A stretch of DNA of 64,000 nt, from NCBI RefSeq assembly GCF_041886205.1, contig NZ_CP169029.1; one strand, written 5' to 3'. The translations under genes were made by a program, and so were the position numbers. Positions 4,601 to 26,845 of this stretch are shown here, piece by piece. Source of the DNA: Escherichia coli (GTDB taxonomy: Bacteria > Pseudomonadota > Gammaproteobacteria > Enterobacterales > Enterobacteriaceae). The notes under the pieces were generated by a model, which saw only the letters and a program-made list of their open reading frames with translations, was not told the DNA's origin and did no database searches. Numbering within the stretch: position 1 is the first letter of the stretch; every line of letters begins with the position of its first letter.

Positions 4601-4768
4601 GCGACCCGCATAGATACGACGATTCGCTATACCAAAAGGGCAGAGTGGATTGGCGATCGTTTTAAAGAACGGGAAATTGCCAACGCATTACGTGAAGAGA
4701 CCGCCAGCTATAATATTGATATTGATGAGGTGATAGCGCTTGCCCGTCAGCAGAAGGAATATCACTGA
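1673..4768 (+). CDS. hsdR: Type I restriction endonuclease R subunit (HsdR)
   Basis: 1031 aa; N-terminal PD-(D/E)xK nuclease motif (PDLVLYVNGIALGVIELKRS), Walker A (TQGSGKSLTMVW), DECH box (FVFVDECHRTQSG); TTG start with AAGGAG Shine-Dalgarno 7 nt upstream. Confidence 0.85.
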   Translation: MSTVGQRERATQQRLIQFFVEDLGYRHLSHRTGYTGNSNIDTNILSAWLKRRGVNDTLITRALRQLDSAAALGEGKKLYYANKEVYRLLRYGVKDKEGAGEQNQTVWLIDWANPQANDFAIADEVTVKGEYCKRPDLVLYVNGIALGVIELKRSSVHVSEGIRQNLDNQKKTFIRDFFTTMQLVMAGNDTQGLRYGTIETPEKYYLEWKEDNPGDYTHKLDFHLSRLCSKSRLLDIVHNYIAFDVGVKKLCRHNQFFGVEAAKQHIARREGGIIWHTQGSGKSLTMVWLAKWIRENVPNSRVLIVTDRTELDEQIESVFMGVNEDIYRTSSGNDLIATLNHPNPWLICSLVHKFGRRSEAEDNAATDAFITELQHSLTKTFRAKGDLFVFVDECHRTQSGKLHNAMTAILPDALFIGFTGTPLMKKDKKKSVEVFGPYIHTYKFDEAVADGVVLDLRYEARDIDQYLTSEKKVDDWFEAKTRGLSNLARTQLKQKWGSMQKLLSSKSRLEQIVNDILLDMDTRPRLMDGRGNAMLVCSSIYQACKVYEMFSQTELAGKVAIVTSYRPDAASIKGEETGEGLTEKLSKHATYRKMLADYFEQSEEKAAARITEFEREVKQRFIEEPGQMRLLIVVDKLLTGFDAPSATYLYIDKTMTDHTLFQAICRVNRLDGEDKEYGYIIDYKDLFRSLDKAITDYTTGAFDDYDRDDVAGLLKDRLEQAQLDLDSALEMVRSLCEPVKTPRSLQDYQHYFCGESGENQTSLNEKEALRLTFYQCVARLLRAYANIANEMPEAGYTAEEVESIRAEVAEFEKLRYEIKLTSGDLLDMKRFEPAMRHLLDMYVRADDSEVLMDFEELSLIELIVEKGLAATVALPDDIRNNQDAMAETIENNVRKTIVDENPVNPKYYGRMSQLLDELITLRRQNALNYQQYLERIRDLCKQVIRPEQTAGACYPATMDTQAKRAFYDNFGHDEVLATRIDTTIRYTKRAEWIGDRFKEREIANALREETASYNIDIDEVIALARQQKEYH

Positions 4769-5484
4769 TGCCAATCATGCAAATAGGCTCGTTACACTTG
4801 CTGGTCAACCGTAAGGCGATTAAGAATCTGCATATCAGCGTGCTGCCGCCTGATGGCAAAGTCCGCGTTTCAGCGCCGGAACATATGACGGAGACGGCGA
4901 TTCGTATGGCGGTTGCTTCACGCTTTCGCTGGATCAGAAAACAGCAGCAGGATTTCGCCAGACAGCCTCGTCAATCAGAGAGGGAAATGGTCAGCGGAGA
5001 GTGCCACTATCTTTGGGGCCGAAGATATCGCCTACTTGTGATTGAGCGTCACGGGCGTCACGAAGTAAAAGTTGCGGGAAATAATAAGCTCCAGCTTTAT
5101 GTTCAACCGGGAACCCGTGATGAAAATAAGGCATTGGCGTTAAGTGAATTTTATCGACATGAACTAAAACAGCAGGTGGCTAAGCTTCTACCTGAATGGC
5201 AGGACCGAATCGGTGTTCCCCTAACATTCTGGGGCATCAAAAAGATGAAAACCTTTTGGGGCACCTGTAACACTACAACAAAACGAATCTGGCTCAATCT
5301 GGAGCTAATTAAGAAGCCGCCGGAGTGTCTGGAGTATATTCTGGTGCATGAACTGGTTCATCTTCTGGAACGTCACCATAATGCTCGCTTCCGGTTGCAT
5401 ATGGATCGGTTTATTCCTGACTGGCGTGAGCGTCGGGATTTGTTAAATAATATGCCGTTAGCGTTTGAGGCATGGGAGTATTGA
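4768..5484 (+). CDS. DUF45 / M48-like zinc metallopeptidase (YgjP-like)
   Basis: 238 aa with HExxH motif (ILVHELVHLLERHH); start overlaps hsdR stop, so it is translationally coupled. Confidence 0.7.
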   Translation: MPIMQIGSLHLLVNRKAIKNLHISVLPPDGKVRVSAPEHMTETAIRMAVASRFRWIRKQQQDFARQPRQSEREMVSGECHYLWGRRYRLLVIERHGRHEVKVAGNNKLQLYVQPGTRDENKALALSEFYRHELKQQVAKLLPEWQDRIGVPLTFWGIKKMKTFWGTCNTTTKRIWLNLELIKKPPECLEYILVHELVHLLERHHNARFRLHMDRFIPDWRERRDLLNNMPLAFEAWEY

Positions 5485-6005
5485 TTGAGCCTGTAACTGT
5501 TTTTTGTCCATAAATTAACCTTCATTTGATGCTGGATTGAACATATCAAAATCAGACAATTACACAAATCTATGTACAGGCTCAACTCCTGCCATGGAAC
5601 GTAGTACTCACCAATAAGTAAGCATCAATACGGCGCTCCGTTAACGCTTACTAGCATGGTTATCTCCTTAAAAAATTGAGGCGACAACTATGCTGACGCA
5701 GGGGGGTATTGGGTGATCTCCTTCCATGAAAATACGCAGCTTGATTGCATTAAATTTATTTAATTTGCACTAATTTTGTTTAAGTTACATTACCACACGT
5801 GGGATATTGGAATACAAGCAACGCGAGGAATCAGTAAATATACCAATAATTGTATCACCCCTTTAATATTCATTAAGGTTTCAGGCCCTCCGGCACGATT
5901 CACCTGGCGAATCAATTCACGAGTCGCCCCAGAGTCACCGCCAATAAACATGCGATTCAACTCCCGATTCGATTCTCACTAATCTATTGTTTTATATAAA
6001 GATAG

Positions 6006-6063
6006 TCAGTACTGACTCTGTGACGACTCGCCGATGACTTGCCATAGAGTCATCGGCGAGTCG
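6006..6063. repeat. Two adjacent perfect palindromes (14 bp AGTCAGTACTGACT; 16-bp stem CGACTCGCCGATGACT with 8-nt loop)
   Basis: Read directly in an ORF-free AT-rich spacer downstream of the DUF45 gene. Confidence 0.8.
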
Positions 6064-6273
6064 GATCGGCATAATAAAAATTATCATAACGTAATTCTGA
6101 AATTATAACTTTATGATTTTAAATACCTATCAGCAAAAACTTGGTTTTGCATGGGGTGTGGAGATTTTGAGGTAAGAAGCAGGCTATCGTAAAATAGCCT
6201 GCTGGGATGGATTCAGTAATCACCGAATAAATTGCGGAGCAAAAAAACCGCCAATCAAGAGATGGGTTAGCAA

Positions 6274-6609
6274 TCAATTTTCGTATTTAAATTCAATATT
6301 AATCTTTAAAGCCTCTACATCTACTGTCACTTCACAGCCATGCCAGAATGGTTTTTCCTGAGATTTAAAGTTATCTAGAAAATAATTTCTTAATTCCACA
6401 AGAAAATCAAATAAATCACCGTTTGCTTGTGCCCCTGCCGAAAACCAATCAGTATTGCCAGTATCTGCATTTATATAGTCAAATTCACATTTACAATGAT
6501 CATTTTCAGGAGACAGTTCTGCTCTCATGATCACTTTGGATGCATTTTCAGGCGCAATGGATAGCAATACTGAACCTATATCATTATAAATCTCTTGATC
6601 AGTCCTCAC
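6274..6609 (-). CDS. Hypothetical small protein, immunity-protein-like
   Basis: 111-aa ORF starting with GTG immediately after the stop of the upstream ORF, with GGAGGT Shine-Dalgarno embedded in the upstream gene end; AT-rich. Confidence 0.35.
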   Translation of the reverse strand: MRTDQEIYNDIGSVLLSIAPENASKVIMRAELSPENDHCKCEFDYINADTGNTDWFSAGAQANGDLFDFLVELRNYFLDNFKSQEKPFWHGCEVTVDVEALKINIEFKYEN

Positions 6610-6921
6610 CTACTTACCTCCGGGTACATTTTTAAACGTTTCAGATACCGGCCTTATGCTGTTACCTGTATAAGATGGCTGGATATTAACTTTAATGCTC
6701 ACTATCCCTGACTCATCCATCTGCTGCATCAACAGAACGGATAAGTCATTCTTCATTGCCCACGGAATATCTTCACCCAATGCCCTGTCTATGGCTTCGT
6801 GAACCAACAAACTGTTAGCAGGGATGTCACCGTACTTCTCTTTGCAGGCTGTCGGGCTCGAAGCACATGTTGCGATCAGTTCATTACGCTGCTTGAGACT
6901 CAGATCTTCCATTTCTTTCAC
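6610..6921 (-). CDS. Hypothetical small protein, possible toxin C-terminal-domain-like module
   Basis: 103-aa ORF abutting the downstream ORF (TAG then GTG); preceded by a 9-bp-stem hairpin at about 7010-7035. Confidence 0.3.
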   Translation of the reverse strand: MKEMEDLSLKQRNELIATCASSPTACKEKYGDIPANSLLVHEAIDRALGEDIPWAMKNDLSVLLMQQMDESGIVSIKVNIQPSYTGNSIRPVSETFKNVPGGK

Positions 6922-7047
6922 GATCTGACCACAGTCACCACGGGCCTCACAACCTTTCGCCCTCGCCGCAAAGTTATCGATCTGATCAGCACTCAGGTAG
7001 TTATTCTCAACAACAATCCCAACTAAAAGGGTTGGGATTCATTACCC

Positions 7048-7491
7048 TTATGTATAAAGACTATCGTCGTAGGGTGCTTCAGTCAGAATTTTTTGAATTT
7101 CATGTCGTGCTTTTAGCTCCCATGAAAGATTCATATTTGCCATTAACTCAATAAATTTTGGGAACGCGATACGTCGTCCATCTCTGCCTTTAACCCTGTG
7201 TTCTAATTCATATTGGAATGCTGTCTTATAAGCGAGTTCTGACATGATCCAATAAAGTAGCTCATCTAGTGACCTAGTAACCTTCCGCGAGAATTCATAA
7301 CCTCTTTCTGAATGAATGTAATTATATACATTGTTTTCAAATGTAACATATGGTGTGCCATCACCAATTGGAGCGGAACAAAGATTAACTGAATGTCTTG
7401 GGAGACCAGCTTGCAAGGTCAACGCGTCAATTTTCCTTTGTATTTCATTGATATTCAGCAACATATTAGCGAACCTCACGAATATATCCAT
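7048..7491 (-). CDS. Hypothetical protein, immunity-protein-like
   Basis: 147-aa ORF whose ATG lies inside the 3' end of an upstream open frame (overlapping toxin/immunity-style arrangement). Confidence 0.35.
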   Translation of the reverse strand: MDIFVRFANMLLNINEIQRKIDALTLQAGLPRHSVNLCSAPIGDGTPYVTFENNVYNYIHSERGYEFSRKVTRSLDELLYWIMSELAYKTAFQYELEHRVKGRDGRRIAFPKFIELMANMNLSWELKARHEIQKILTEAPYDDSLYT

Positions 7492-7721
7492 TCTTCAATA
7501 GCCATTCCACATTCACTCGATCTTGCATATTAGGTAATATCTGAATCCCCCCTCCAGGCTCACCAAAAGCGGGGGCAATCTTTCCTTGTATAGCAGGCAA
7601 GGGTTTTATTACCTCATATTCATAGTATTTATATGAACGCATCCCGTTTGCAAGGCATCCATTGTTTTGACATGACGGGTAGGTTGCAGCTTTATATCCG
7701 GCTTTATTGCAGCCGTAACGC
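7468..7721 (-). pseudogene. Start-less open frame, possible C-terminal fragment of a truncated polymorphic-toxin gene
   Basis: Open frame on the minus strand (...NKAGYKAATYPSCQNNGCLANGMRSYKYYEYEVIKPLPAIQGKIAPAFGEPGGGIQILPNMQDRVNVEWLLKNGYIREVR*) with no plausible start, ending 21 nt inside the downstream ORF. Confidence 0.25.
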
Positions 7722-7902
7722 TGCGAGCCCCTATGTAATTCGCCGACTCACCCCTTATTTTCACGGCGGACTTCAAGCCCAAAATACTGTTCAGGTTTAG
7801 TGAGTCACGGTCTTACCTGTCTTTGTCATCACTCTGGCCGCCATAGCAACCTTTCAGCATTCACCCTTTTGTTAAGAGTTCATTGTTTAATGGTATCAGC
7901 GA

Positions 7903-8064
7903 TTAATATGGTCTGATACTGACGTGGTTCCTGTCATACTTACGGTCATGGGCGGTTATCGCCCATACTGTTCGTGCCAGCTTGTTTGCCATGGCGACGA
8001 TTGCCACACTGGCTGGACGACGTTTTTTCAGTTCGGTTATCCACGGGCCAGGCTCTTTAGCTAC
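7903..8064 (-). pseudogene. IS110-family transposase, C-terminal part, separated from its 5' part by an IS66-family insertion
   Basis: Minus-strand translation continues the interrupted tnp frame across the target duplication (...KEPGPWITELKKRRPASVAISAMANKL...), a typical IS110-family C-terminal tail. Confidence 0.55.
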
Positions 8065-8094
8065 GTAAGCGACTCGTCAGAACCGTATTGATAT

Positions 8095-9666
8095 TTACTG
8101 AGAGCTCAGATCAACTTTCCAGGGCAACAGATCGCGTACCCGGTTTGCCGGCCAGTCCTGGATATGTTCAATGACGTAACGCAGCCACTTTTCTGGCTCC
8201 ACATTGTTCAGACGGCATGTGCCGATCAGCGAGTACAACACCGCCGCATGTTCACCACCGCTGTCGGAACCCGCGAACATCCAGTTTTTCCGGCCTACGG
8301 CCACTCCCCGTAAGGCGTTCTCTGCGATGTTGTTGTCGATTTCCACCCAGCCATTACTGCAGTACACGTTCAGTGCATCCCACTGTTTCAGCAGGTATGC
8401 GAACGCTTTTGCCGTATCTGAGTGACGCGACAGTGTTTTCATCTGTTGCTGTATCCAGTCATACAGTGACTGCATCAGTGGCGCGGCTCTGGCTTTTCTT
8501 GCCGCCAGACGCTGTTCTGCTGAACAGCCCCGGACCTCTGCCTCGATGGCATACAGTTCACCGATACGCTGCAGGGCTTCCGTGGTGATGTAGGTGGACG
8601 CTCTTGCATGCACATCGTGGATTTTTCTCCGGGCATGAGCCATACACGCGGCTTCCGTTATTCTGCCGGATTCGTATAACGCCCGGTAACCACCGTAAGC
8701 ATCGGCCTGAAGCACACCGCTGTAACCGGCCAGGTGATTTTGTGGATGGATACCTTTCCGGTCCGGACTGTACGCGAACCAGACCGCCGGGGGCATCTGT
8801 GAACCGGCGTTACGGTCATCACGGACGTAGACCCACAGCCGGGCTGTCCGGGTTTTACCGCTGCCCGGCTCCTGGACCGGGACGGGGATATCATCAGCAT
8901 GGACTTTACCGGGCATCAGCACATACTGGCGCAGGACGTCATACAGCGGCTCCAGCAGTTCAGCAACAGCACCTGTCCAGCGCCCCAGTGTGGCACGGCT
9001 CAGCTCCACTCCCTGACGACGGTATATTTCTGACTGGCGGTATAACGGCAGATGGTCTGCATATTTCCCGGTGACAACATGGGCCAGAAGCCCCGCTCCG
9101 GCATAACTGCGTGCAATGGGTTTTGAAGGTACTGGTGCCTGCACGATATGGTCGCACCGGCAACAGGCCTGTTTCGGACGTTGTGTTTCGATAACCTTAA
9201 AGGCGCTGCTGATAAGCTCCAGTTGCTCTGACACATCACATCCCAGAGAACTGAGTTCACCACCACAGGCAGGACAGCATTCCTCTTCCGGCCGGATAAC
9301 CCGGGTTTCACGGGGAAGTGAGGCCGGTAACGGTTTACGGGCTGAAGACTGGCGCAGGGCGGATGGCAGTACCGGGTCATATTGCTCACCCAGCGTTTCC
9401 GCCATTTCTTCCTGAAGTGCGCTGATTCGCTCCTGTGCTTCCTGTATCTGCCGTTCGGTTTTTGCACGAAGTTTTTCTGAGCTTTTACCGAACTGCATAC
9501 GTTGCAGTTTCGCAACCAGCGCCTTCAGCCGGTTGATTTCGGAAGCATAAGCCGCCACCCGCTGTGAGAGCAGGCGGTTGTATTCAGCCATCTGGCGGAT
9601 GGTGTCCTGTTGCGTCTGCAACAGTGCCCGCAGGCGGGCGTTCTCATGAGCAAGTGAGGTGTCCAT
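8095..9666 (-). CDS. IS66-family transposase TnpC
   Basis: 523 aa, N-terminal coiled-coil/leucine-zipper region, CxxC zinc-finger pairs, typical IS66 TnpC length. Confidence 0.85.
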
Positions 9667-9685
9667 ATCCTCACTTTACAACGGG

Positions 9686-10033
9686 TTATATGCGGATTCC
9701 AGCGCGTTCCGTTCGTTTCGGGTGCTTCCAGTTGATACCTTCAAGAAGCATGGATAACTGAGCCGGAGTAAGGTGCACCTTGCCGTCACGGGTGACTGGC
9801 CAGACGAAGCGGCCCCGCTCCAGGCGTTTGGTGAAGAGGCACAGTCCGTCACTGTCAGCCCACAACACTTTTATCTGGTCACCCCGGCGTCCGCGGAAGA
9901 TGAACAGGTGTCCGGAGAACGGGTCATCCTTCAGGACGTTCTGAACTTTTGATGCCAGGCCGTTAAAGCCATTTCGCATATCGGTGATACCTGCAACCAG
10001 CCAGATACGCGAACCTGCAGGGAGAGATATCAT
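9686..10033 (-). CDS. IS66-family TnpB (orfB)
   Basis: 115 aa; WLVAGITDMRNGFNGLASKVQ motif characteristic of IS66 orfB. Confidence 0.85.
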   Translation of the reverse strand: MISLPAGSRIWLVAGITDMRNGFNGLASKVQNVLKDDPFSGHLFIFRGRRGDQIKVLWADSDGLCLFTKRLERGRFVWPVTRDGKVHLTPAQLSMLLEGINWKHPKRTERAGIRI

Positions 10034-10710
10034 CAGTGGCTGCTCCCTTTTATTTCGCGGATAAGTGTCTGTAATAACGCCGGCGTCAGTTTACCTTTAA
10101 GCCTGAGAGTTCCGGCCGGCAGAACCAGCTCACAACACAGACTGTCGGACGGTGTATTTATCTGCTCTGGTTCCTGTGCGGGGGCCGGGATTTTATTATC
10201 CGGCTCCGGCGTTAACGTCACGGGAAGCAGTGCCGGCATATTTTTTCCGGAAGGCAGCAGGCCACCTTTCCGGTATTGATGGCGCCAGTTGAAGAGCAGG
10301 TTATCGTTGATTCCGTTTTCCCGGGCGATCTGCGCCACACAGGCTCCGGGCTGCAGTGACTGCTCCACTAAGGCGATTTTAAACTCATAAGGGAAGTTGG
10401 GCCGCCGGGGACGTTTTTTTACCACGGGGGCTTCGGATATAACGGTGCTTTCAGGACGTACGACTGGTACCGTGGAAAATTGTCCGTAAAGGCAGGCATC
10501 AAGTTCCTGCTCCGACATGCCTGCGGGCAAAGGCCACGAAAGGCCAGCTCTCCGAAAGCGCACGAACATACTACAAACTGTTGATTTTGGTACACCCAGG
10601 CGACGCCCGGCCACAACCCGGGGTAAATGTTCTTCAAAGTGAAGACGTAAAGCTTCAGTGATCCAGGTCCGGTGTTTCATACGATAGTGTCCATTAAAAA
10701 TGATGGACAT
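10033..10710 (-). CDS. IS66-family orfA (HTH accessory protein, extended form)
   Basis: 225 aa; C-terminal IS66 orfA-like region (FKIALVEQSLQPGACVAQIARENGINDNLLFNWRHQY); start/stop overlap with orfB. Confidence 0.7.
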   Translation of the reverse strand: MSIIFNGHYRMKHRTWITEALRLHFEEHLPRVVAGRRLGVPKSTVCSMFVRFRRAGLSWPLPAGMSEQELDACLYGQFSTVPVVRPESTVISEAPVVKKRPRRPNFPYEFKIALVEQSLQPGACVAQIARENGINDNLLFNWRHQYRKGGLLPSGKNMPALLPVTLTPEPDNKIPAPAQEPEQINTPSDSLCCELVLPAGTLRLKGKLTPALLQTLIREIKGSSH

Positions 10711-10763
10711 TATTTTTGTAGAGCCGGAGGAAACAGACCAGACGGTTTAAATGAGCCGGTTAC

Positions 10764-11629
10764 TTAGCTACTAATGCCACCGCTCTTGCACCGTGGATAA
10801 ATAATGTCCTGAGATAAGTGTCACCACGTTTGCTTATCCCCAGCAGACGTACTTTCCCTCCGGAGCCAGTTTGTTTTGGAACCAGACCAACATATGCGGC
10901 GAACTCTCGCCCCGATTTAAACGCTGATGCTTCCCCCATGGTGGCCACCGCTGCCGTCGCAATAAGTGGTCCAACGCCAGGAATATCCAGCAACCGCTTA
11001 CAGGTTTCATTCTGCCTCGCCACGCTGGTAAGCTGTTTTTCAATATCCTCTATCAGTGAGTCCAGCTCATTCAGTCGGTTGTACTGGTTTTCCAGAACCA
11101 TAATGAGATACGGTGGCAGTCTCTCTTTCATCCGTTCCAGTGCTTCGGGGAACTCCCGCTCCATCGCTGCCCGGCCTTTGTGGATGGTTTCACCAAACTC
11201 CAGTAACGTCCCGTGCAGGGCATTAATTTGTGCGGTCCGGAACTTCACCAGTTGCATGCGGGTACGGTGCAGAACCAGTACCGACTGCTGTTCTTCTGTT
11301 TTTACGGCGATTTCTTTACCCGGCTGCTGAACCGCCATCCAGATAGCCCGGGCATCCATCACATCATTCTTATTGCCCATGACGAATGCCTTAACGAAGC
11401 GGGCCTGCAACAACCGGACTTTATGACCAAGTTTTGTCAGTTCCCGTGCCCAGTGCTGAGAACCTCCACAGGCCTCCATACCAATCAGGCATGGCTCACG
11501 GTTGCCGAAGAACATCAGAAAATCCTGTCTACGCAACTGTTTATCAACCACTTCACCTGTGTGCTCATTGATGAAGTGAATCTGAATGACATGTTTTGCG
11601 ATATCAACGCCAACCGGTGTATATTTCAT
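10764..11629 (-). pseudogene. IS110-family transposase, N-terminal 288 codons, truncated by the IS66-family insertion
   Basis: N-terminus MKYTPVGVDIAKHV (DEDD/RuvC-like) and C-terminal Tnp domain (DIPGVGPLIATAAV...YVGLVPKQTGSGGK...ISKRGDTYLR); its stop codon is supplied by the terminal bases of the IS66-family element. Confidence 0.7.
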
Positions 11630-11771
11630 TTGTGGAGTCTCCAGTCTGAGGGAGCTTTATGCATCCCGTATTGGGCACTATGATGCCGGAAATCTGCGAG
11701 GCTCCACACCTGCCAGTTTCACCCTTTTAACCATCATACTGCTCCGTGTTTAATTGTGTGGGATGCGTTCA

Positions 11772-11942
11772 TTACATTTTCACCATTTTGCCACTGCGGC
11801 CCCGGAAGACGAAGATATGCCCGGAGAACGGGTCATCTTTCAGCGTGTTCTGCACCTTCGAAGCCAGGCCGTTGAAGCCACAACGCATATCTGTGATGCC
11901 AGCGATGATCCAGATTCTGGTACCGGTCGGCAGCGTTATCAT
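11772..11942 (-). pseudogene. IS66-family orfB fragment (first ~50 codons) of a second, truncated IS66-family copy
   Basis: Translation MITLPTGTRIWIIAGITDMRCGFNGLASKVQNTLKDDPFSGHIFVFRGRSG then diverges; homologous to the intact orfB at 17905..18252. Confidence 0.6.
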
Positions 11943-12613
11943 CGGATACCCCCTTTCATTTCGCGAATGAGCACCCTAAGAAGCTCCGGAGTAAGGGGGG
12001 CAAACAGTTTTACCACACCTGATTTAAGATGCAGCTCACACTGTGGTGAGTCTACGGTAGTGTCATTCTGGCTTTCATCAGACTTGTTTCGCCAGAAAGG
12101 ATTTGTCACCGGTTTGACAGGGTCAGGAGTCTCAGTGATTGCTACCGGAACGGCCTGACATTCTTGGAGATCCTCATCATACAGTAAGCCCTCTTCATAC
12201 AGTCTTTTCCAGTTAAACAACAGATTGTCATTAATATTGTGCTCTCTGGCGATCCGTGCAACGACTGTACCAGGCTGTAATGCCTGTTTTACCAGCCTGA
12301 TTTTAAATTCACGACTGTAGGAGGTTCGTCGTTCTTTTCGCCATGTGCTTTCGCTGATTTGAGGCTCGGTTAATACCTTCTTTCTGTTGGCATAAAGTAT
12401 GGCATCAAGTTGGGCGACTGAAAGTGATTCAGGTAATGGCCAGGTAATACCGGAGGCATTAAATCGTTGAAAGAGATTATGAATAGTGGAATGACTGAGA
12501 CCTAACTGCAGGGCGATAGCCCGGACAGATAATTGCTCGTCGAATCTTAGACGTAATGCGTCTGGCAAATAAGAGCGAAAGCCGGTGATATCTTTTGTTG
12601 TCTGAGAATTCAT
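11939..12613 (-). CDS. IS66-family orfA (copy 2, extended form)
   Basis: Homologous to the orfA at 10033..10710 (IRLVKQALQPGTVVARIAREHNINDNLLFNWKRLY); probable start MNSQTT at 12613. Confidence 0.6.
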   Translation of the reverse strand: MNSQTTKDITGFRSYLPDALRLRFDEQLSVRAIALQLGLSHSTIHNLFQRFNASGITWPLPESLSVAQLDAILYANRKKVLTEPQISESTWRKERRTSYSREFKIRLVKQALQPGTVVARIAREHNINDNLLFNWKRLYEEGLLYDEDLQECQAVPVAITETPDPVKPVTNPFWRNKSDESQNDTTVDSPQCELHLKSGVVKLFAPLTPELLRVLIREMKGGIR

Positions 12614-12945
12614 CGTTCGTGTCCATCTATATAGATGGACGCGATTGTTGCCAGACAGGACAACCATCACAAAACGTCACAGACGGAGCCTTACATCTCA
12701 GCTGTAGCACACGCAGGATCAATTCCGGATTATCTGCCAGTACCGCCTTTCGTGCATTCATCTTAAATGTCCTTTTACTGCGAAAATGGACATTAGTATC
12801 GGAAACAGGAAAGGGAGGCGAAAGACGGTTTAAATGATGCGCTTACTGTTGTCTGGGAATTCATCGTTTGTGTCCATCAATATAGTTGGGCACGATTGTT
12901 GCCAGACAGGACAATTTTCACAAGACGTCGCAGATGGGGCGCTTA
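12596..12945. repeat. Imperfect ~90-bp direct repeat of an IS66-family terminus / orfA 5' region (12596-12700 and 12853-12945) containing the 20-bp perfect palindrome GTCCATCTATATAGATGGAC
   Basis: Aligned by eye; both copies carry GAATTCATCG...GTCCAT...GATTGTTGCCAGACAGGACAA; a CGCTTAC-type terminus follows at 12843-12850 and 12937-12943. Confidence 0.6.
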
Positions 12946-13267
12946 CCAATAACTCGGCAGGGAGTTATCTGTGCGAGGATATTTGTGTTATGCTGTAATA
13001 TAATAATTCAATGTGTTCAGGAACAGTAATATGCTACAGTTTCTACTTTCTTGTATTTAATAAATTGTTCCGTATCGCTAAAAGCAGGTCTTTCAGAAGT
13101 CAAAAGGATTCTGTGGTCCCAGTATTTTTAGTTATCTTATTTTTATATCTAATTTGTAATACTTATAGCATTTTCATTCTTCCTAATGGAAGGCTGTAAT
13201 AATCTTTGAGCTTAGGAACATCAAAATTATGCATCTCATTAATTTTGTCAGTCACACGACCTCTGGT

Positions 13268-13304
13268 AAAAATAAAACCCACAGAAATATGCCATTTCTA
13301 TGGG
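13268..13304 (-). terminator. Rho-independent terminator downstream of the MFS transporter gene
   Basis: Minus-strand hairpin CCCATAGAAATGGCATATTTCTGTGGG followed by TTTTATTTTT. Confidence 0.55.
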
Positions 13305-13325
13305 CTTCGTAAGAATCAATATATT

Positions 13326-14609
13326 TTAGTTACATTTAGCTCTAAGTGTTTGTAGTTTCATCGCAATGAGTAAAAGGACAACAAGAATAAGTGATAACGT
13401 TAAGAGAAGAGCATAGAAACCATTCCAGTGGTATATTTCTATTATTTTAGACAATGGATAGCCAGCCGCGGATGCACCAAGATATGCGAATAAACTAACA
13501 AAACCAGTAGAAGCACCAGATGCATATTTATGTGAGTTTTCAGCAGCTGCCATTGCGATCAGAAATTGTGGACCAAAGATAAAGAAGCCAGTGATGAAAA
13601 ATAACAACGAAAAAACATATTTACTATCGATAGAAACCAACCATAGACATGCAGAAGCAATGATTATACCAATTGTATAAATAACATTCATTTGAGAGCG
13701 ATTGCCCTTAAACAGAATATCTGATCCCCATCCAGCTACGATAGCACCAAAAAAGCCTCCAACCTCAAACATCATTACTGTTGCATTTGCTGTTAGCAAG
13801 TCATATTTATGAGTCTCAATCAAATACAAATTTCCCCAGTCATTGATTCCTGTACGAATAACATAAATAACTGCATATGATATTGCCAATACCCAAATTA
13901 TATTATTTTTAAATATATAATCTTTTAAGATATTCCATTGTGACAACCCTATACCTTGTTCTTCATGATTAATCTCAGCTATATCATTACGCCACTCTCC
14001 AACTGTTGGTAATCCCATCGATCTTGGTCGATCACGCAATAAGAAACATAATAAAATGCCAATAATAACAGCAATGGCCCCCGGAATAATCATGCCATAA
14101 CGCCAACCTAGCCATAAGGCAACACTACCTGATAAAATAGGGATAATTGCTCCACCGATATTATGAGATGTATTCCATATGGACCACCAGAATCCACGTT
14201 CATTTCGGGAATACCAAGTATTTAAAATTTTTGAACACGGAGGCCATCCCCATCCCTGAAAAAAAGCATTAACCATCCATAAAAATATAAACAAAGGTAT
14301 AGATGATGTTAAACCAAACAATATATTGACACATCCAGTCATTATCAATCCAATCCCCATAAACCATCTTGGATTAGAACGATCACCTATAACTCCAGAA
14401 ATAAATTTTGATGCCCCATAAGTTAGATAAAATGCCGTTCCGACCATACCAATATCTGATTTTGTAATACCTAAATCAGATAGCATCTCAGGCATTACGA
14501 AGTTAAAGCTCTTTCGTGTGAAATAAAATACAGCATATCCTATATAGCTCACAATCATTAAATGAAGTCGCCAATATCTATATGTTTTATCAATATCAGT
14601 TTTACTCAT
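13326..14609 (-). CDS. MFS transporter, organophosphate:phosphate antiporter family (UhpC/UhpT/GlpT/PgtP-like)
   Basis: About 427 aa, 12 predicted hydrophobic segments, family-typical motifs (DRSNPRWF, FFQGWGWPP); AT-rich; likely start MSKTDIDK at 14609. Confidence 0.7.
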   Translation of the reverse strand: MSKTDIDKTYRYWRLHLMIVSYIGYAVFYFTRKSFNFVMPEMLSDLGITKSDIGMVGTAFYLTYGASKFISGVIGDRSNPRWFMGIGLIMTGCVNILFGLTSSIPLFIFLWMVNAFFQGWGWPPCSKILNTWYSRNERGFWWSIWNTSHNIGGAIIPILSGSVALWLGWRYGMIIPGAIAVIIGILLCFLLRDRPRSMGLPTVGEWRNDIAEINHEEQGIGLSQWNILKDYIFKNNIIWVLAISYAVIYVIRTGINDWGNLYLIETHKYDLLTANATVMMFEVGGFFGAIVAGWGSDILFKGNRSQMNVIYTIGIIIASACLWLVSIDSKYVFSLLFFITGFFIFGPQFLIAMAAAENSHKYASGASTGFVSLFAYLGASAAGYPLSKIIEIYHWNGFYALLLTLSLILVVLLLIAMKLQTLRAKCN

Positions 14610-14956
14610 TGTTATTTCTTTGTCAGGAGACTCTGAAAATATGGACATATATAACCTCTTTTATTATGAAATATTTTCAATAATAATCCGTTAGTAATCC
14701 TATCATAGGGTAATGCCTCATCATGTTAAAATGATCACATTTATAATCATGTCAAAAAGAACAACAGAAAAAATGATTTAAAATCAATTAAATATAATTT
14801 CAACATATTGTTGTTATTAAAACATTGGTGGTAAATGTAAAGCGAGAACAGTTTGTAACAGTGACTCCTTGCAGACTAAGTTAGAGTCTCCTGATCTTAC
14901 CCAGCAATAGTGGACACGCGGCTAAGTGAGTAAACTCTCAGTCAGAGGTGACTCAC

Positions 14957-15256
14957 ATGACAAAAACAGTATCAACCAGTAAAAAACCCCGTAAACAGCA
15001 TTCGCCTGAATTTCGCAGTGAAGCCCTGAAGCTTGCTGAACGCATCGGTGTTACTGCCGCAGCCCGTGAACTCAGCCTGTATGAATCACAGCTCTACAAC
15101 TGGCGCAGTAAACAGCAAAATCAGCAGACGTCTTCTGAACGTGAACTGGAGATGTCTACCGAGATTGCACGTCTCAAACGCCAGCTGGCAGAACGGGATG
15201 AAGAGCTGGCTATCCTCCAAAAGGCCGCGACATACTTCGCGAAGCGCCTGAAATGA
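14957..15256 (+). CDS. insE: IS3 OrfA (InsE)
   Basis: Translation [32 protein letters not shown]... matches my recollection of IS3 InsE. Confidence 0.85.
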
Positions 15257-16119
15257 AGTATGTCTTTATTGAAAAACATCAGGCTGAGTTCAGCATCAAA
15301 GCAATGTGCCGCGTGCTCCGGGTGGCCCGCAGCGGCTGGTATACGTGGTGTCAGCGGCGGACAAGGATAAGCACGCGTCAGCAGTTCCGCCAACACTGCG
15401 ACAGCGTTGTCCTCGCGGCTTTTACCCGGTCAAAACAGCGTTACGGTGCCCCACGCCTGACGGATGAACTGCGTGCTCAGGGTTACCCCTTTAACGTAAA
15501 AACCGTGGCGGCAAGCCTGCGCCGTCAGGGACTGAGGGCAAAGGCCTCCCGGAAGTTCAGCCCGGTCAGCTACCGCGCACACGGCCTGCCTGTGTCAGAA
15601 AATCTGTTGGAGCAGGATTTTTACGCCAGTGGCCCGAACCAGAAGTGGGCAGGAGACATCACGTACTCACGTACAGATGAAGGCTGGCTGTATCTGGCAG
15701 TGGTCATTGACCTGTGGTCACGTGCCGTTATTGGCTGGTCAATGTCGCCACGCATGACGGCGCAACTGGCCTGCGATGCCCTGCAGATGGCGCTGTGGCG
15801 GCGTAAGAGGCCCCGGAACGTTATCGTTCACACGGACCGTGGAGGCCAGTACTGTTCAGCAGATTATCAGGCGCAACTGAAGCGGCATAATCTACGTGGA
15901 AGTATGAGCGCAAAAGGTTGCTGCTACGATAATGCCTGCGTGGAAAGCTTCTTTCATTCGCTGAAAGTGGAATGTATCCATGGAGAACACTTTATCAGCC
16001 GGGAAATAATGCGGGCAACGGTGTTTAATTATATCGAATGTGATTACAATCGGTGGCGGCGGCACAGTTGGTGTGGCGGCCTCAGTCCGGAACAATTTGA
16101 AAACAAGAACCTCGCTTAG
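15253..16119 (+). CDS. insF: IS3 OrfB (InsF, DDE transposase/integrase core)
   Basis: 288 aa; rve-type catalytic core; overlaps orfA as expected for -1 frameshift expression. Confidence 0.9.
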
Positions 16120-16248
16120 GCCTGTGTCCATATTACGTGGGTAGGATCAATAAGCATATCCAGAGGTGGTGTACAAGCCAGAGTAAAACGTGAGTTTTAT
16201 TTGGTAAAATCGTAAGCGCCCTTTGTAGAGCGTAGTGTAAGCAGGGGT

Positions 16249-17885
16249 TTACAGAACGAGGTTCCAGTGCAACAACTCTTCCACCCGGTTTGACGGCCAT
16301 TCACTGATACAGCTGATGACCTCACGCAACCAGCTTTCCGGATCCACTCCTTTCAGCCAGCATGTCGCCAGCAGGCTGTACAGGATCGCTGCGCTCTGAC
16401 CTCCCGTGTCTGAGCCGAAGAATAGCCAGTTGCGTCGCCCTAGGGCGACACAACGCAGTGTGTTTTCTGCGATATTATTGTCCAGCTCCACACGCCCGTC
16501 CTCACAACAGAGCGACAGCGATTCACGGTGGTTCAGCATATAGCTGAACGCTTTCCCCAGCTCTGCATGCACCGACAACGTCTCCATCTGTTCTGTCAGC
16601 CACGCGAACAACGCCTTCATCTGCGGGACGCTTTTCTCCTGCCGTTCTGCCAGCCGTTTCTCTGCCGGTGACCCCGGATTGTCGCTTCCACCACATACAG
16701 CCCGGCTATATGCTTCAGCGCCTCCGTTGTCATCGCTGCCGGCCGGCGAACATGCTCATCATGGATCTTTCTCCTTGCATGCGCCATGCAGGCGGCTTCC
16801 CTGATCCGCCCTGACTCATAAAGCGCATCGTAACCGGCAAACGCATCTGCCTGCAGGATACCTTTCCACTCCGCCAGATGCCCCTGCGGGTGACAGCCCC
16901 GACGATCTGCACTGTAAGCGAACCACGCCGCTGGCGGAGCCGCTGAACCGCGGTTCCGGTCATCGAGCACATACACCCACAGCCGGCCCGTCCGGGTTTT
17001 ACCGCTCCCCGGCTCCAGCACTTTCACCGGGGTGTCGTCCGTGTGCTATTTGCTGCTCTCTCTCCATCACGTAGCGGTTCAGCGCATCGTGCAGGGGACT
17101 GAGTCGTTCTGCGGTCATCGCCACCCACCGGACCAGCGTGTTTCGGCTCAGTTCCACACCCTGGTGGCTGAAGATGACGGACTGACGATGCAGCGGGGTA
17201 TGGTCACAGTATTTACTCACCAGGATGCGGGCCAGCAGGTCCGCACCGGCCACACTGCGGGTCAGCGGTTTCGGGGGAGTGGTGCCTGGACTATCACATC
17301 GCAGCGGCTGCAGGCCAGCTTCGGGCGCACCGTTTCGATGACCTTAAAGGAGCTGCGGATTATCTCCAGTTGCTCTGAGACGGTTTCACTCATAACCTTC
17401 AGGTCGCCGCCGCATTTCGGGCAGACAGTCTCTGTCGGGGGGATGCGCCGGGTTTCACGTGACAGGTCTGCCGGCAGTTTCTGACGACGGGAGCGGCGTG
17501 CAGGCCGGTCCTGTGGGGCGACCGCCACCGGGGGCTCTGCCTGCTCAACCGTACCGACAGCGGGCTCATCGTCCTGCAGACAGCGTTTTGCCGCTGCAAG
17601 ACGGTTTTCCAGCTCAGCCAGCCGCTTCTCTGCCTGGCGGATTTTATTTTCCAGTTTATTGCGGCTTTTCTCCGAACTCTGCCCGAACAGCATCCGCCGC
17701 AGCTTATCAAGCTGTGCCTTCAGCCGTTCGATTTCCTGTTCGTAGTCGGCAACCTGTCCGGCGTACTGGCGCAGCCGGGCCTGCTGCTTTTTCATGGTAA
17801 CATTTAGCTGTTCCACAGCAACCTGCTGCTGACGCAACAGGGCTTTCAGCTGGTCGATATTATCAGGAAGCGGGATATTTTTCAT
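16249..17885 (-). pseudogene. IS66-family tnpC pseudogene (multiple frameshifts)
   Basis: Four consecutive minus-strand ORF pieces (17262..17885, 16999..17253, 16617..17027, 16249..16620) together resemble one TnpC. Confidence 0.7.
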
Positions 17886-19288: not shown

Positions 19289-19789
19289 ATGAACAACACA
19301 GACTCATTAGAAAAAATAATCAAACATCAACAAAACAACGATCCAAAATACCCCTGCCAGGAGCATCTGTTGATACAACTCTGTATCCGCGTAAACAAAA
19401 AAATACAGGATAATATATCGAGTTTACTCAGTGGATATGGAATAAATTATTAAACATATATGGTTCTTACCATATTATCCACAGCAGATAATCATTGTCT
19501 TTCGCCCTCAAAGATAAGCAGAGAACTCCAGTTTACCAGAACAAACATTACCCGCATTACAGATTTTTTAGAAAAAGCAGGGTATATAGAAAGAACTGAT
19601 AGCAGAGAGGATCGCCGTGCTAAAAAAATCAGTCTGACATCAGATGGTCTGTCCTTTATTCAGAACGTCAATATTGCACAAAGTCTGCACCTGAAAGAAA
19701 TCTGGAGCCCGCTGACCCATGCAGAGTGTGAACTGTTTGAAGACATTAATAAAAAATTACTGACGCATATTGCTGATGTGTGTCCCTAA
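19289..19789 (+). pseudogene. MarR-family regulator (PapX/SfaX-like) with in-frame TAA at 19451-19453
   Basis: Single frame reads MNNTDSLEKIIKHQQNNDPKYPCQEHLLIQLCIRVNKKIQDNISSLLSGYGINY*TYMVLTILSTADNHCLSPSKISRELQFTRTNITRITDFLEKAGYIERTDSREDRRAKKISLTSDG...; winged-helix MarR signature with DRR motif. Confidence 0.5.
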
Positions 19790-22053: not shown

Positions 22054-22875
22054 TTATAAGGAAATGGCAGAATACTCTGTGTTTATCCATGAGTGTTCCT
22101 TTTCCCAGGTGAATATCCATTTACGTACTGGTCCGGCCATCACGTTAAGGTAATAACTGTCATACCCGGCCATCGTCGCCACCGGGTGGTACCCTTTCGG
22201 CACCATGACCACGTCACGGTTATAGACCGCCATACATTCATCAAGTGTGCGGTCATCGGTATACACCCGCTGCATGCAGAACCCCTGTTCCGGGTTGAGG
22301 CGATGGTAATAGGTCTCCTCCAGATAGCTCTCCTGAGGCGGGTTATTCGTATCGTGTTTATGGCTCGGGTACGAACTGGTACAGCCTTCGTTGGTCCAGA
22401 CCTCGACGACCAGCAGGCTGTCAGCGGGCTTGTCTTCCGGCAAAATATTATGCACATAACGCTGGTTGTGGCCGTTACCGCGCGCTTCGCCATCGATATC
22501 CTGAGGTGCAATCAACCGCGTCGGGTATGTCCCTTTTCCCGGAGCGGTACAGACTGCCAGCTCCAGTTTCGTCAGCGCCTTCACCTGCACTGCCTCCTGC
22601 GGGGTGACGTAAACTGCCCAAGGTTTGATGCGCTCGAACGGGCTCATCCGCTCCCCGATATCAGTAAACTGTGCAGAAGGAGTGCTGATGAAAGCGCGCC
22701 CGGCCACCAGCACCAGACAGCGCTCTTCACTGACAGCGGGCAGCGTCAGTTGCTGCCCTTCCTCAAGTTCATAGGCCTCAAAGCCAACATATCCCCATCC
22801 GGCGCTTTCCGGCGTGACAGACTGAGTCCGCCCCTCAGCGTTCGGCTGTTGCCAGCGTGATAACAAACGTGACAT
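22054..22875 (-). CDS. iolB: 5-deoxy-glucuronate isomerase IolB
   Basis: 273 aa, KduI/IolB cupin-like; located in the iol operon. Confidence 0.8.
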   Translation of the reverse strand: MSRLLSRWQQPNAEGRTQSVTPESAGWGYVGFEAYELEEGQQLTLPAVSEERCLVLVAGRAFISTPSAQFTDIGERMSPFERIKPWAVYVTPQEAVQVKALTKLELAVCTAPGKGTYPTRLIAPQDIDGEARGNGHNQRYVHNILPEDKPADSLLVVEVWTNEGCTSSYPSHKHDTNNPPQESYLEETYYHRLNPEQGFCMQRVYTDDRTLDECMAVYNRDVVMVPKGYHPVATMAGYDSYYLNVMAGPVRKWIFTWEKEHSWINTEYSAISL

Positions 22876-22884
22876 GTCACCTCC

Positions 22885-23811
22885 TCAGATAAGCCCGGCG
22901 TCGCGCGCCAGGCGGCTCAGATTGTTATATCCCAGACGGGCGTAGGTCAGCGGATGGGCGATCGCCGGGTCCTGTTCAGCCTCCACCACCAGCCAACCGT
23001 GATAATCCTGCGTTTTCAGCAGTTGCATAATCGGCGGATAATCCACGCAGCCGTCACCCGGCACGGTAAACACGCCGCTCAGCACCGCGTCGAGGAAGCT
23101 GGTTTTACGGTTTTTGACGTCCGCCAGCACGTCGGCGCGCACATCTTTGCAGTGAACATGATTGATGCGCGATGCCCATCGCTGTGCCACCGCCAACGGA
23201 TCGGCCCCGGCAAAGGTCAGGTGGCCGGTATCCAGCAGTAAACCAACCTCCTCACCCGTGTGGAGCATCAGGTTGTCCACGTCTTGAGCGGACTCAATCA
23301 CCGTGCCCATATGATGGTGGTAAGCAATCTGTACCCCCTGTTGCTGCGTATAGCGGGCGAACACGGTGAGCTTCTCACCATACTCTTTCCAGCATTCCTG
23401 CGGGAAACGTGGGCGCAGGTGAACCGGCGTCTGCTGCTCACCGTGAATGCAGCCACTCACTTCCGCAAAAACCAGTACTTTTGCACCCAGCTCTCGCAGC
23501 AGCGTCAGATGCGACTGCACAGCAGCAATCTCGTCCTCTACACTGCGTTCCAACAGGCGGCCGGAATACCAGCCGGAGACCAACTGCAGGTCGTGGCGCT
23601 GCAAAATGGGGCCGAGCAGGCGCGCTTCTCGCGGGAATTTATTGCCCAGTTCGAAGCCGGCAAAACCGGCCTCTTTCCCTTCACTCAGGCAGGTCTCCAG
23701 AGATGTCTCCGCGCCCAGTGAAGGCAGATCATCGTTCGTCCACGTCAGCGGGTTGATGCCCAGTTGTACACTCATTGTCGTCTCCATTATGCGTGTCCGC
23801 GCTCGCGCCAC
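22885..23811 (-). CDS. iolE: Inosose dehydratase IolE (likely start MSVQLG at 23775)
   Basis: Xylose-isomerase-like TIM barrel; sequence GINPLTWTNDD typical of IolE. Confidence 0.8.
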   Translation of the reverse strand: MARARTRIMETTMSVQLGINPLTWTNDDLPSLGAETSLETCLSEGKEAGFAGFELGNKFPREARLLGPILQRHDLQLVSGWYSGRLLERSVEDEIAAVQSHLTLLRELGAKVLVFAEVSGCIHGEQQTPVHLRPRFPQECWKEYGEKLTVFARYTQQQGVQIAYHHHMGTVIESAQDVDNLMLHTGEEVGLLLDTGHLTFAGADPLAVAQRWASRINHVHCKDVRADVLADVKNRKTSFLDAVLSGVFTVPGDGCVDYPPIMQLLKTQDYHGWLVVEAEQDPAIAHPLTYARLGYNNLSRLARDAGLI

Positions 23812-26837: not shown

Positions 26838-26845
26838 CGTGATCC

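Follow-up and report, generated by a model that had tools for sequence, protein, structure and literature searches.

The window, that is, the whole 64 kb stretch of Escherichia coli DNA analyzed here, contains an intact gene for a UhpC-like MFS protein that lies between insertion sequences (Table 1). The 440-aa ORF is free of interruption over its whole length, and the N-terminus of its product is conserved among orthologs from residue 1. The GC content is 0.31–0.37 over positions 13000–14750 as against 0.50–0.62 on either side; that of the gene alone is 0.35 (0.26 at third codon positions), whereas that of the flanks is 0.51 and that of K-12 uhpC is 0.55. Because uhpBC is resident in 5417 of 5426 E. 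coli genomes, the window gene represents an extra, foreign copy; in short, it is a horizontally acquired, compositionally foreign accessory gene. An earlier reading made from the letters alone (the sequence-only reading) had described it as an AT-rich gene amid IS elements, of a UhpC/UhpT/GlpT-like family, with no cognate two-component regulator nearby. All three points hold: the composition and the surrounding IS66-type remnants and IS3 bear out the first, the family models reported below (NF008661 and Pfam MFS_1) confirm the second, and a tblastn search of the entire 64 kb with K-12 UhpA, UhpB and UhpT as queries gave no match to uhpA or uhpB. Its statement that IS3 lies about 280 bp upstream is roughly right, since the terminal base of IS3 is 243 bp from the ATG and orfA starts at about 300 bp, and the span that it delimited (13268..14891) runs from just beyond the terminator to the last base ahead of IS3. 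An iol (myo-inositol) operon is located about 7 kb from the gene. A functional link to this operon was ruled out, as the same DNA occurs in pap and F17 fimbrial islands that have no iol genes.

The neighborhood of the gene is made up of degraded copies of IS66, IS110 and IS3. Two IS66-type ends stand in tandem to its left (12600–12689 and 12851–12940), and the direct repeat D1 at the second, orphan end is 86% identical to the first. This orphan end takes the place of sequence that runs about 35 bp further in other alleles. On the opposite side, the left end of IS3 faces the promoter region of the transporter gene, and the transposase is transcribed away from it. No 3-bp target duplication was found around IS3, whose left and right flanks read TCC and ATA; this points to a rearrangement beside the gene. 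In alleles that have no IS3 at this place, another IS adjoins, in either orientation. A composite transposon was therefore ruled out: the ISs at the two ends differ (IS66-type and IS3), a target duplication is missing, and the neighbors are not the same from allele to allele. In the lineage of the window, the flanks of the cassette would have been trimmed by the IS66-type end on one side and by IS3 on the other.

Table 1. Features at the transporter locus, in coordinates of the window
Feature	Position	Strand	Basis
IS66-like accessory gene tnpA, 243 aa	11939..12670	minus	ORF list; RefSeq annotation of identical stretch
Orphan IS66-type terminal repeat region (GTAAGCGCCCC...), abutting the cassette	12851..12946	minus	direct repeat D1, alignment
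AT-rich cassette, 1945 bp (379 bp downstream, gene, 243 bp upstream)	12947..14891		megablast, boundary alignments
Intrinsic-terminator-like hairpin and T-run	13264..13308	minus	16-pair stem, loop of 3, T-rich tail
CDS of UhpC-subfamily OPA family MFS protein, 440 aa	13326..14648	minus	ORF list, NF008661, Pfam MFS_1, identity to K-12 UhpC
Putative ribosome-binding site AAAGAGG, 6 nt ahead of the ATG	14655..14661	minus	read from sequence
Sigma-70-like promoter TTAACA-16 nt-TATGAT, 10/12 matches	14702..14729	minus	consensus scan
CRP-like site TGTGATCATTTTAACA, 1 mismatch to TGTGA-N6-TCACA	14724..14739	minus	overlaps the -35 hexamer
IS3, 1258 bp	14892..16149	plus	ends read in sequence; orfA/orfB ORFs; RefSeq 'IS3-like element IS3 family transposase'

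The AT-rich cassette recurs as one block across E. coli islands of otherwise unlike content, and the E. coli copies are always found in IS-rich islands. A megablast search recognized it in 20 of 5426 complete E. coli genomes, in full length in 12 and only as truncated remnants, such as those at loci L011 and L012, in the other eight. The window-type gene is thus present in 0.2–0.4% of E. coli genomes, as against 99.8% for the core uhpC. Three diverged E. coli alleles are full-length, with dN/dS values of 0.08–0.10, although such low values could stem from the donor lineages and not from E. coli itself; selection for the gene in E. coli may be weak, because it is intact in only 12 of the 5426 genomes and truncated in eight others. 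Related copies are kept on conjugative plasmids of Citrobacter and on contigs of Salmonella. A 1867-bp 'plasmid' of strain JML285, on which the gene is found, was considered as an excised circle and rejected; it is simply colinear with positions 12781..14647 of the window and is more likely an assembly artefact. A literature search yielded nothing relevant on the protein of the window gene or on a uhpC-like gene in E. coli.

The protein scored 658.3 bits against the UhpC-subfamily model NF008661 of NCBIfam (cut-off 564), 431.3 bits against the OPA family model TIGR00881 (TC 2.A.1.4; cut-off 407.75) and 195.8 bits against Pfam MFS_1 (E = 1.3e-57). In contrast, it remained below the cut-offs of the models for UhpT (NF007107; 234 vs 497), GlpT (TIGR00712; 336 vs 632.55) and PgtP (NF047787; 213 vs 750). 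Its identity to K-12 UhpC is 54% over the full length, and that to UhpT is 30%. By these sequence models, it is a member of the UhpC subfamily of the OPA family. The AF2 model (pLDDT 82, pTM 0.84) has the expected pattern of the 12-helix MFS fold, and its top Foldseek matches were the human glucose-6-phosphate (G6P) exchanger SLC37A4 and E. coli GlpT (probability 1.00; TM-scores 0.72–0.85). Both were also matched by sequence, GlpT (1pw4) with E = 2.4e-82 in an alignment over residues 2–430 and SLC37A4 with E of about 1e-66. As references for the substrate site, we used the arginines of TM1 and TM7 (R45 and R269 in GlpT, R46 and R275 in UhpT) together with K80 and H165 of GlpT. The GlpT/UhpT core residues R45, K46, K81, H162, R265, D270 and E295 are all present in the window protein and do not vary among the 36 clade members, while the positions of D388 and K391 of UhpT are occupied by Thr and Val, as in UhpC. 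Genuine UhpC sensors conserve the binding-site residues just as well; these residues therefore do not discriminate between carriers and sensors, and we discarded them as a criterion.

The phylogeny and the gene neighborhoods are more informative. In a neighbor-joining tree, the window protein falls in a clade of Morganellaceae and Pasteurellaceae proteins that is sister to the uhpAB-linked UhpC sensors, with a bootstrap value of 199/200. Fifteen positions are fixed differently between this clade and the canonical UhpC clade, and members of the former are 54–57% identical to the G6P-specific UhpC. Within 6 kb, uhpA or uhpB accompanies none of the 36 members but every one of the 41 canonical UhpC genes, and gene tables list solitary contexts in Providencia, Actinobacillus, Salmonella and one Citrobacter plasmid. 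The window gene thus neither groups among the uhpAB-linked proteins nor stands in an operon with uhpAB, and it shares with HPTcp of Chlamydia the state of a UhpC-like gene without UhpAB. Since no member of the clade has uhpAB within 6 kb, a role as sensor would not be its ancestral function, and the lack of linkage in 36 of 36 genes, as distinct from the sensors with linkage in 41 of 41, favors a stand-alone transporter. Judged from gene order and phylogeny, members of the gene family naturally stand without a regulator, so that its absence here is not an outcome of stranding by IS elements. The sequence-only reading had proposed an orphan sensor or transporter: the orphan state stands, the choice narrows toward the transporter, and the stranding by IS elements as its cause is withdrawn. 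The automatic RefSeq name 'glucose-6-phosphate receptor UhpC' probably misdescribes the entire clade of Morganella, Providencia, Pasteurellaceae and Citrobacter-plasmid proteins.

The closest relatives by amino acid identity are found in Morganella morganii (89%), followed by Providencia (79–81%) and the Pasteurellaceae (68–75%). None of the sampled species fits as the direct donor: the Morganella copy, the nearest in protein sequence, has a GC content of 0.45, the composition is matched by Providencia and some Pasteurellaceae, whose identity reaches only 72–81%, and synonymous sites are saturated against every sampled species. The donor was probably a low-GC relative of Morganella and Providencia. 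In blastn and tblastx searches for a remnant of a donor neighbor gene, both flanks of the gene matched nothing among the collected loci except the E. coli copies. A distinct solitary UhpC-like gene, in P. vermicola, directly follows a gene of the inositol-monophosphatase family.

As far as can be predicted from its sequence, the cassette keeps its own promoter-like region, CRP-like site, ribosome-binding site and terminator. The sigma-70-like promoter, about 55–80 nt upstream of the ATG, is a consensus match only, and such matches are no more frequent in the AT-rich stretch than by chance (12 found vs 9.9 expected); it is conserved in the KC-Dl-1 and CFS3292 alleles. CRP-like matches are likewise not rare over the whole window (2 found vs 1.9 expected). 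Within positions -100 to -70 from the ATG, however, a CRP-like site with at most one mismatch is present in eight of 21 non-redundant orthologs, as against 0.019 expected from shuffled sequences, and a site at about -90 is common to the window gene and Pasteurellaceae orthologs. The CRP-like site is absent from the upstream region of the Providencia and Morganella orthologs. In the window, its phasing relative to the predicted -10 hexamer is about -36.5 to -39.5, as compared with -41.5 in the classical arrangement. The terminator-like hairpin begins 17 nt past the stop codon. The 243 bp upstream of the ATG are kept in alleles that lack IS3 there, together with about 40 bp further upstream. A search of Rfam for structured RNAs or riboswitches gave no match at E <= 1 in the leader or in the 379-bp tail.

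Taken together, these results lead us to favor, with somewhat better than even confidence, the view that the gene is mobile, carries its own signals and encodes a self-sufficient hexose-phosphate:phosphate antiporter of the UhpC subfamily (OPA family) that is independent of UhpAB. The protein would act alone as an inner-membrane carrier and, by analogy with its relatives, would exchange an external hexose-6-phosphate, most likely G6P, for internal inorganic phosphate, presumably by means of the paired TM1 and TM7 arginines and of the Lys and His in the binding site of OPA proteins. The chlamydial UhpC is a G6P transporter according to a statement in PMC4281921, which cites Schwoppe 2002, and E. 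coli UhpC has a G6P transport activity of its own (PMC8154325; PMC9306846), which runs at a low rate. Transcription would start from the gene's own promoter, probably under the control of cAMP-CRP, so that neither UhpAB nor an IS promoter would be needed; because the DNA has only about 31–35% GC, damping of expression by H-NS is possible. The cassette itself seems to be passive cargo among the IS-rich islands of E. coli.

Alternative explanations concern, on the one hand, the expression of the gene. IS elements can create or carry outward promoters, and with the left end of IS3 243 bp upstream of the ATG, IS3 or a hybrid promoter created by it might drive the gene, as the sequence-only reading had supposed. 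Such dependence would not be needed, because a promoter-like site, a CRP-like site and a ribosome-binding site exist inside the native 243 bp that are conserved where IS3 is missing. Furthermore, transcription of the IS3 transposase leads away from the gene, a consensus scan found no promoter-like site on the strand of the gene within 14892–15100 (and hence none facing it in the first 200 bp of IS3), the CRP-like and promoter-like sites are well inside native sequence, and the IS3-less alleles carry the same upstream DNA next to different ISs in either orientation. An IS-derived promoter is, in our estimation, extremely unlikely. A further reading holds that the intact ORF is a silent or decaying passenger, unexpressed or useless in E. 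coli and hitch-hiking in an IS graveyard toward loss. The rarity of the cassette, the eight of 20 genomes with nothing but truncated remnants, the degraded IS66, IS110 and IS3 copies around it and the rearrangement indicated by IS3 without target duplication all suit this reading, and H-NS typically targets DNA of 31–35% GC for silencing in E. coli. On the other hand, the three diverged alleles have remained full-length with low dN/dS, the promoter region, ribosome-binding site and terminator are conserved along with the gene, and the relatives on Citrobacter conjugative plasmids and Salmonella contigs have been retained, so we hold the passenger reading to be not very likely.

The remaining alternatives accept a working protein and differ in its role. 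It might be a stand-alone OPA antiporter for another substrate, such as the phosphate of inositol, of a heptose or of a different hexose, or a phosphonate, for example fosfomycin. Its clade has diverged to 54–57% identity from the G6P-specific UhpC, with 15 clade-specific substitutions, and inositol-related genes occur both next to the solitary P. vermicola gene and, as the iol operon, some 7 kb away in the window. There is, however, no conserved metabolic neighbor, because the cassette sits in other E. coli islands without iol genes; the nearest characterized relatives (E. coli UhpC and, per the literature, chlamydial UhpC) act on G6P, and the best structural matches are G6P exchangers, SLC37A4 among them. 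We consider a different substrate unlikely. Alternatively, the foreign protein could be an accessory G6P receptor that docks on the chromosomal UhpB and changes the induction of uhpT, either as a second sensor input or as a dominant interferer. It passes the UhpC model and shares 54% of its residues with K-12 UhpC along the full length, E. coli UhpC joins sensing with transport (PMC8154325), and the host almost certainly contains a partner kinase because nearly all E. coli (5417/5426) carry uhpABC. This role is nonetheless quite unlikely in view of the position of the protein outside the uhpAB-linked sensor clade (bootstrap 199/200), the absence of any uhpAB-adjoining gene among the 36 clade members, and the 15 positions fixed differently between the clades. 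That the protein is a true transceptor, which both imports G6P itself and cross-talks with the resident UhpB, is more doubtful still; if it were so, the induction of uhpT, the scavenging of hexose phosphates in the gut and the uptake of fosfomycin would be altered in the carrier strains. Much more likely than the transceptor is the broader proposition that the 'UhpC' proteins of the Morganellaceae/Pasteurellaceae clade are, throughout, carriers that work without UhpAB, probably under CRP control, and have been misnamed as receptors.

If the window gene encodes a working stand-alone carrier, a small and mostly cattle-associated set of E. coli gains an uptake of G6P that is independent of induction by UhpABC. 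If the entire clade consists of UhpAB-independent carriers, they represent, alongside UhpT and AfuABC, a third way for Gram-negative bacteria to take up sugar phosphates; uptake by AfuABC has been linked to gut colonization (PMC4546632). The understanding of the family is unchanged by the finding, its practical consequence is small, and the twist that it gives to annotation is modest. Fosfomycin enters the cell through OPA-family carriers such as UhpT and GlpT, so an extra carrier of this family could matter for fosfomycin susceptibility.

Among known systems, the window protein shares with K-12 UhpC (b3667), the sensor or transceptor of the UhpABC-UhpT system, the NF008661 subfamily, the length, the binding-site residues and the MFS fold. 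However, the window gene is located outside a uhpABC operon, belongs to a separate clade, has a foreign GC content and is rare, not core. UhpT, GlpT and human SLC37A4 have in common with it the OPA family, the fold, the arginine pair and the Lys and His, yet its scores fall well short of the curated UhpT, GlpT and PgtP cut-offs, and its identity to UhpT is only 30%. The UhpC of Chlamydia pneumoniae and C. trachomatis (HPTcp), likewise a UhpC-type carrier without a UhpAB partner, resembles it in context and, by the function reported for it, serves as the model for the role proposed here; in Chlamydia, however, it belongs to the core genes of an obligate intracellular organism, whereas the window gene travels as mobile cargo and its host, a free-living enterobacterium, already possesses UhpT. 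The solitary 'UhpC' genes of Morganella, Providencia and Pasteurellaceae, which owe their name to automatic annotation only, are like the window gene in being single, without uhpAB and in the same clade, but they reside in ordinary chromosomal surroundings, whereas the copies of E. coli and of the Citrobacter plasmids are flanked by ISs.

The gene situated between the IS66-type remnants and IS3 encodes an intact, selected member of the organophosphate:phosphate antiporter (OPA) family, belonging to the UhpC subfamily and having a complete binding site. The best NCBIfam model was that of the UhpC subfamily (NF008661; 658 bits vs a cut-off of 564), the general OPA-family model TIGR00881 was also passed (431 vs 408), and Pfam recognized a single MFS_1 domain; the family assignment of the sequence-only reading was therefore correct. 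Identity with UhpT, GlpT or PgtP was rejected because the protein fell far under the cut-offs of all three equivalog models. It is 54% identical to K-12 UhpC over the whole length, vs 30% to UhpT. The solved structures closest by sequence, GlpT (E = 2.4e-82) and the human glucose-6-phosphate exchanger SLC37A4, were also the top fold matches of an AlphaFold model built with 15 relatives (pLDDT 82, pTM 0.84), which shows the MFS helix pattern. The GlpT residues that form the OPA binding site and gating network (R45, K46, K80, H165, R269, D274 and E299) all have counterparts in the protein (R45, K46, K81, H162, R265, D270 and E295).

The window consists of E. coli chromosomal DNA, of which 12700-15000 is 99.9-100% identical to the bovine strains ZYB39, C10, C11 and ZYB62. 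The GC content is 0.31-0.37 over 13000-14750 vs 0.50-0.62 in the flanks, and that of the gene is 0.35 (0.26 at third positions) vs 0.51 in its surroundings. What had been noticed from the sequence alone, namely an AT-rich gene with IS66 remnants on its left, IS3 on its right and no regulator pair nearby, was borne out in every particular, and a tblastn search with K-12 UhpA, UhpB and UhpT found neither uhpA nor uhpB anywhere in the 64-kb window.

Positions of the gene, its predicted signals and neighboring features in the window
Feature	Position	Remarks
Uninterrupted ORF, 440 codons	14648 -> 13326	minus strand
Ribosome-binding site AAAGAGG		6 nt upstream of the ATG
Hairpin (16-pair stem), then T-run	13308..13274	17 nt past the stop codon
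Sigma-70-like promoter TTAACA-16-TATGAT	14729..14702	predicted
CRP-like site TGTGATCATTTTAACA	14739..14724	overlaps the -35 hexamer; 1 mismatch vs CRP core consensus
IS66-like tnpA	11939..12670	left of the gene
IS66-type ends, tandem pair	12600-12689 and 12851-12940	86% identical, 251 bp apart
IS3 (TGATCTTACCCAGC...)	14892 to 16149	right of the gene; full-length, 1258 bp; orfA/orfB intact
IS66-type end (GTAAGCGCCC)	~16213	right of IS3
MarR-family regulator	19289-19789	pseudogene (internal stop)
iolB, iolE, iolC-like, ABC transporter, iolG, iolD, mmsA	22054-35159	
CRP-like site TGTTATCAATCTCACA	31564-31579	iolG-iolD intergenic region

The inner IS66-type end is part of the element with tnpA, and the outer one, which runs out at 12946, is an orphan end directly adjoining the AT-rich cassette (12947..14891, 1945 bp). 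IS3 lies 243 bp from the ATG and its transcription is directed away from the gene. A 3-bp target duplication was not found at IS3 (TCC on the left vs ATA on the right). At least one side was thus altered by rearrangement after insertion, and the flanks suggest an IS3-mediated deletion or recombination; on the right, a further IS66-type end replaces the cassette continuation of other strains. A composite transposon was rejected for the cassette.

About 7 kb to the right, the same AT-rich island holds a complete iol cluster for myo-inositol catabolism, in which an ABC sugar transporter and the sole other CRP-like site of the window with one mismatch or fewer are found. The MarR-family pseudogene, so classified in the matching RefSeq genome annotation, is surrounded by AT-rich DNA, with the IS cluster on one side and the iol genes on the other. 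The segment 1-7011 matches islands that in other strains carry a type I restriction subunit R, a DarT/DarG toxin-antitoxin pair, an M48 metallopeptidase and cdiA-related genes. Among the complete genomes of the collection, coverage of 1-13000 does not exceed 54%, and this module arrangement is thus absent from them.

A scan with one genome per species yielded 80 loci, each of which was searched with K-12 UhpA, UhpB and UhpT. Among the best of them, amino acid identity to the window protein is 89% in Morganella morganii, 86-87% in M. psychrotolerans, 79-81% in Providencia, 68-75% in many Pasteurellaceae, and 54-61% in Aeromonas, Serratia, Yersinia, Edwardsiella, Vibrio and Photobacterium. All 41 loci of the 54-61% group have the classical uhpABC operon, with uhpA-uhpB immediately upstream; within 6 kb, this pair was found in none of the 36 loci of the Morganellaceae/Pasteurellaceae group, E. 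coli copies included. The proposed check by phylogeny (neighbor-joining, rooted with UhpT) placed the protein among UhpC relatives, inside the solitary Morganellaceae/Pasteurellaceae clade (bootstrap 199/200), sister to the uhpAB-linked sensors; E. coli, Morganella and one metagenomic sequence were united in 197/200 replicates, and the E. coli alleles in 200/200. The gene tables of Providencia huaxiensis, Actinobacillus delphinicola, Salmonella contigs and a Citrobacter freundii plasmid show single genes in mutually unrelated contexts. Since the Citrobacter copy (88% protein identity, between IS26 and IS5) is on a conjugative IncFIB plasmid, the clade also moves on plasmids; river-water C. freundii plasmids with the copy are pRHBSTW-00714_3 (locus L096, 5827-7161) and NZ_CP056528.1. 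In short, the lack of an adjacent uhpAB is the norm in this gene lineage and was not caused by the IS cluster: the gene is an orphan, as had been supposed, in that no regulator adjoins it, but this is its native condition and not a result of stranding. Providencia vermicola (L008, 5166-7308) has another solitary UhpC-like gene, 60% identical to the window protein and outside this clade, with an inositol-monophosphatase-family gene 44 bp upstream; the pairing hints at a possible link between some solitary UhpC-like carriers and other phosphorylated substrates.

The cassette is present in 20 of the 5426 complete E. coli genomes and is full-length in 12, eight of which came from cattle or a cattle farm and the rest from two humans, a pig and a beluga whale; because several are near-identical isolates, the cattle association is only suggestive. 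The alleles show 99.9, 96.8, 95.0 and 94.7% DNA identity (truncated remnants, 89% and 86%), and their surroundings differ in each case: a pap island with IS66 directed toward the gene in KC-Dl-1, an F17 fimbrial island near cadA-lysS with IS66 in the opposite orientation in CFS3292, a truncated copy in the human isolate 550, and a remnant adjoining pgtP-pgtCBA in UPEC_U013. This last remnant (~550 bp, 86% identical; L012, 8001-8556) lies ~1.7 kb from the complete pgtP-pgtCBA (10298-16521), a system for phosphoglycerate transport in a uropathogenic island; one IS-rich region thus contains two different foreign OPA-family genes. Boundary alignments indicate that other alleles extend ~35-40 bp beyond both cassette ends before diverging; in the window lineage, the orphan IS66-type end and IS3 stand in place of these extensions. 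The 1867-bp 'plasmid JML285_P7' (L099, NZ_AP024121.1), deposited as a complete circle from E. coli JML285, is colinear with 12781-14647, comprising the cassette without its promoter together with 166 bp of the orphan IS66-type end. The JML285 chromosome also holds a cassette copy. Because JML285_P7 has no replication gene, an assembly artefact is a likelier explanation than a plasmid or an excised circle.

Comparison of the alleles gives a dN/dS of 0.08-0.10 (dS ~0.09-0.10), and the coding sequence has therefore been under purifying selection. Synonymous sites are saturated relative to Morganella and Providencia, the composition resembles low-GC Providencia and Pasteurellaceae, unlike Morganella, and the cassette flanks have no match outside E. 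coli; the true donor species is outside the sampled set. Core uhpBC is present in 5417 of the 5426 genomes. It is thus almost certain that the host possesses a Uhp system of its own, to which the gene adds a foreign paralog.

The predicted promoter lies in the 243 bp upstream of the ATG, which are kept in alleles without IS3. On their own, the promoter and CRP matches are weak evidence, since promoter-like matches in the AT-rich stretch (12 observed, 9.9 expected) and CRP-like matches in the window (2 observed vs 1.9 expected) are at chance level. The comparative result is stronger: among 21 non-redundant orthologs, eight (the E. coli cassette and seven Pasteurellaceae) have a CRP-like site with one mismatch or fewer at 70-100 nt ahead of the ATG, vs 0.019 expected from shuffling (maximum 1 in 2000 trials); in this interval none was found in Providencia and Morganella orthologs. 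Because its phasing to the predicted -10 is ~-36.5 to -39.5, vs the class II value of -41.5, the predicted site is described as CRP-like with class-II-like geometry. The sequence-only reading had suggested dependence on an IS promoter; with the upstream region conserved and no gene-strand promoter-like site found in the first 200 bp of IS3, an IS-derived promoter is unnecessary and unsupported, and we regard it as most improbable. H-NS in E. coli typically targets DNA of such AT-rich composition, so expression may be low in laboratory conditions; set beside the purifying selection, a silent or decaying passenger appears unlikely.

We consider it fairly probable that the protein would act as a stand-alone hexose-6-phosphate:phosphate antiporter, with its expression driven by the gene's own promoter and probably dependent on cAMP-CRP. 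The Chlamydia UhpC homolog is described, in a passage of PMC4281921 citing Schwoppe et al. 2002, as the glucose-6-phosphate transporter of that organism, and E. coli UhpC, a sensor, itself transports glucose-6-phosphate at a low rate (PMC8154325; PMC9306846). A 2015 study named only UhpABCT beside AfuABC for Gram-negative sugar-phosphate uptake (PMC4546632), and the solitary clade is therefore uncharacterised. The same mechanism with another organophosphate substrate, which partly overlaps this reading, seems rather unlikely. An accessory receptor feeding the host UhpB is likewise unlikely for a gene whose clade never accompanies UhpAB (within 6 kb, 36 loci).

The finding is real and ordinary: RefSeq annotation already covers the gene, and nothing is new in its architecture. 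The protein is built like UhpC, GlpT and SLC37A4. By sequence it belongs to the UhpC subfamily, but it differs from the UhpC receptor both in operon linkage with uhpAB and in placement among the linked proteins, and the label 'the G6P receptor' is therefore not appropriate for it. Its working mode may instead be like that of the chlamydial-type solitary UhpC carrier, and the only point added here is that the automatic name probably misleads as to function throughout a whole mobile clade.
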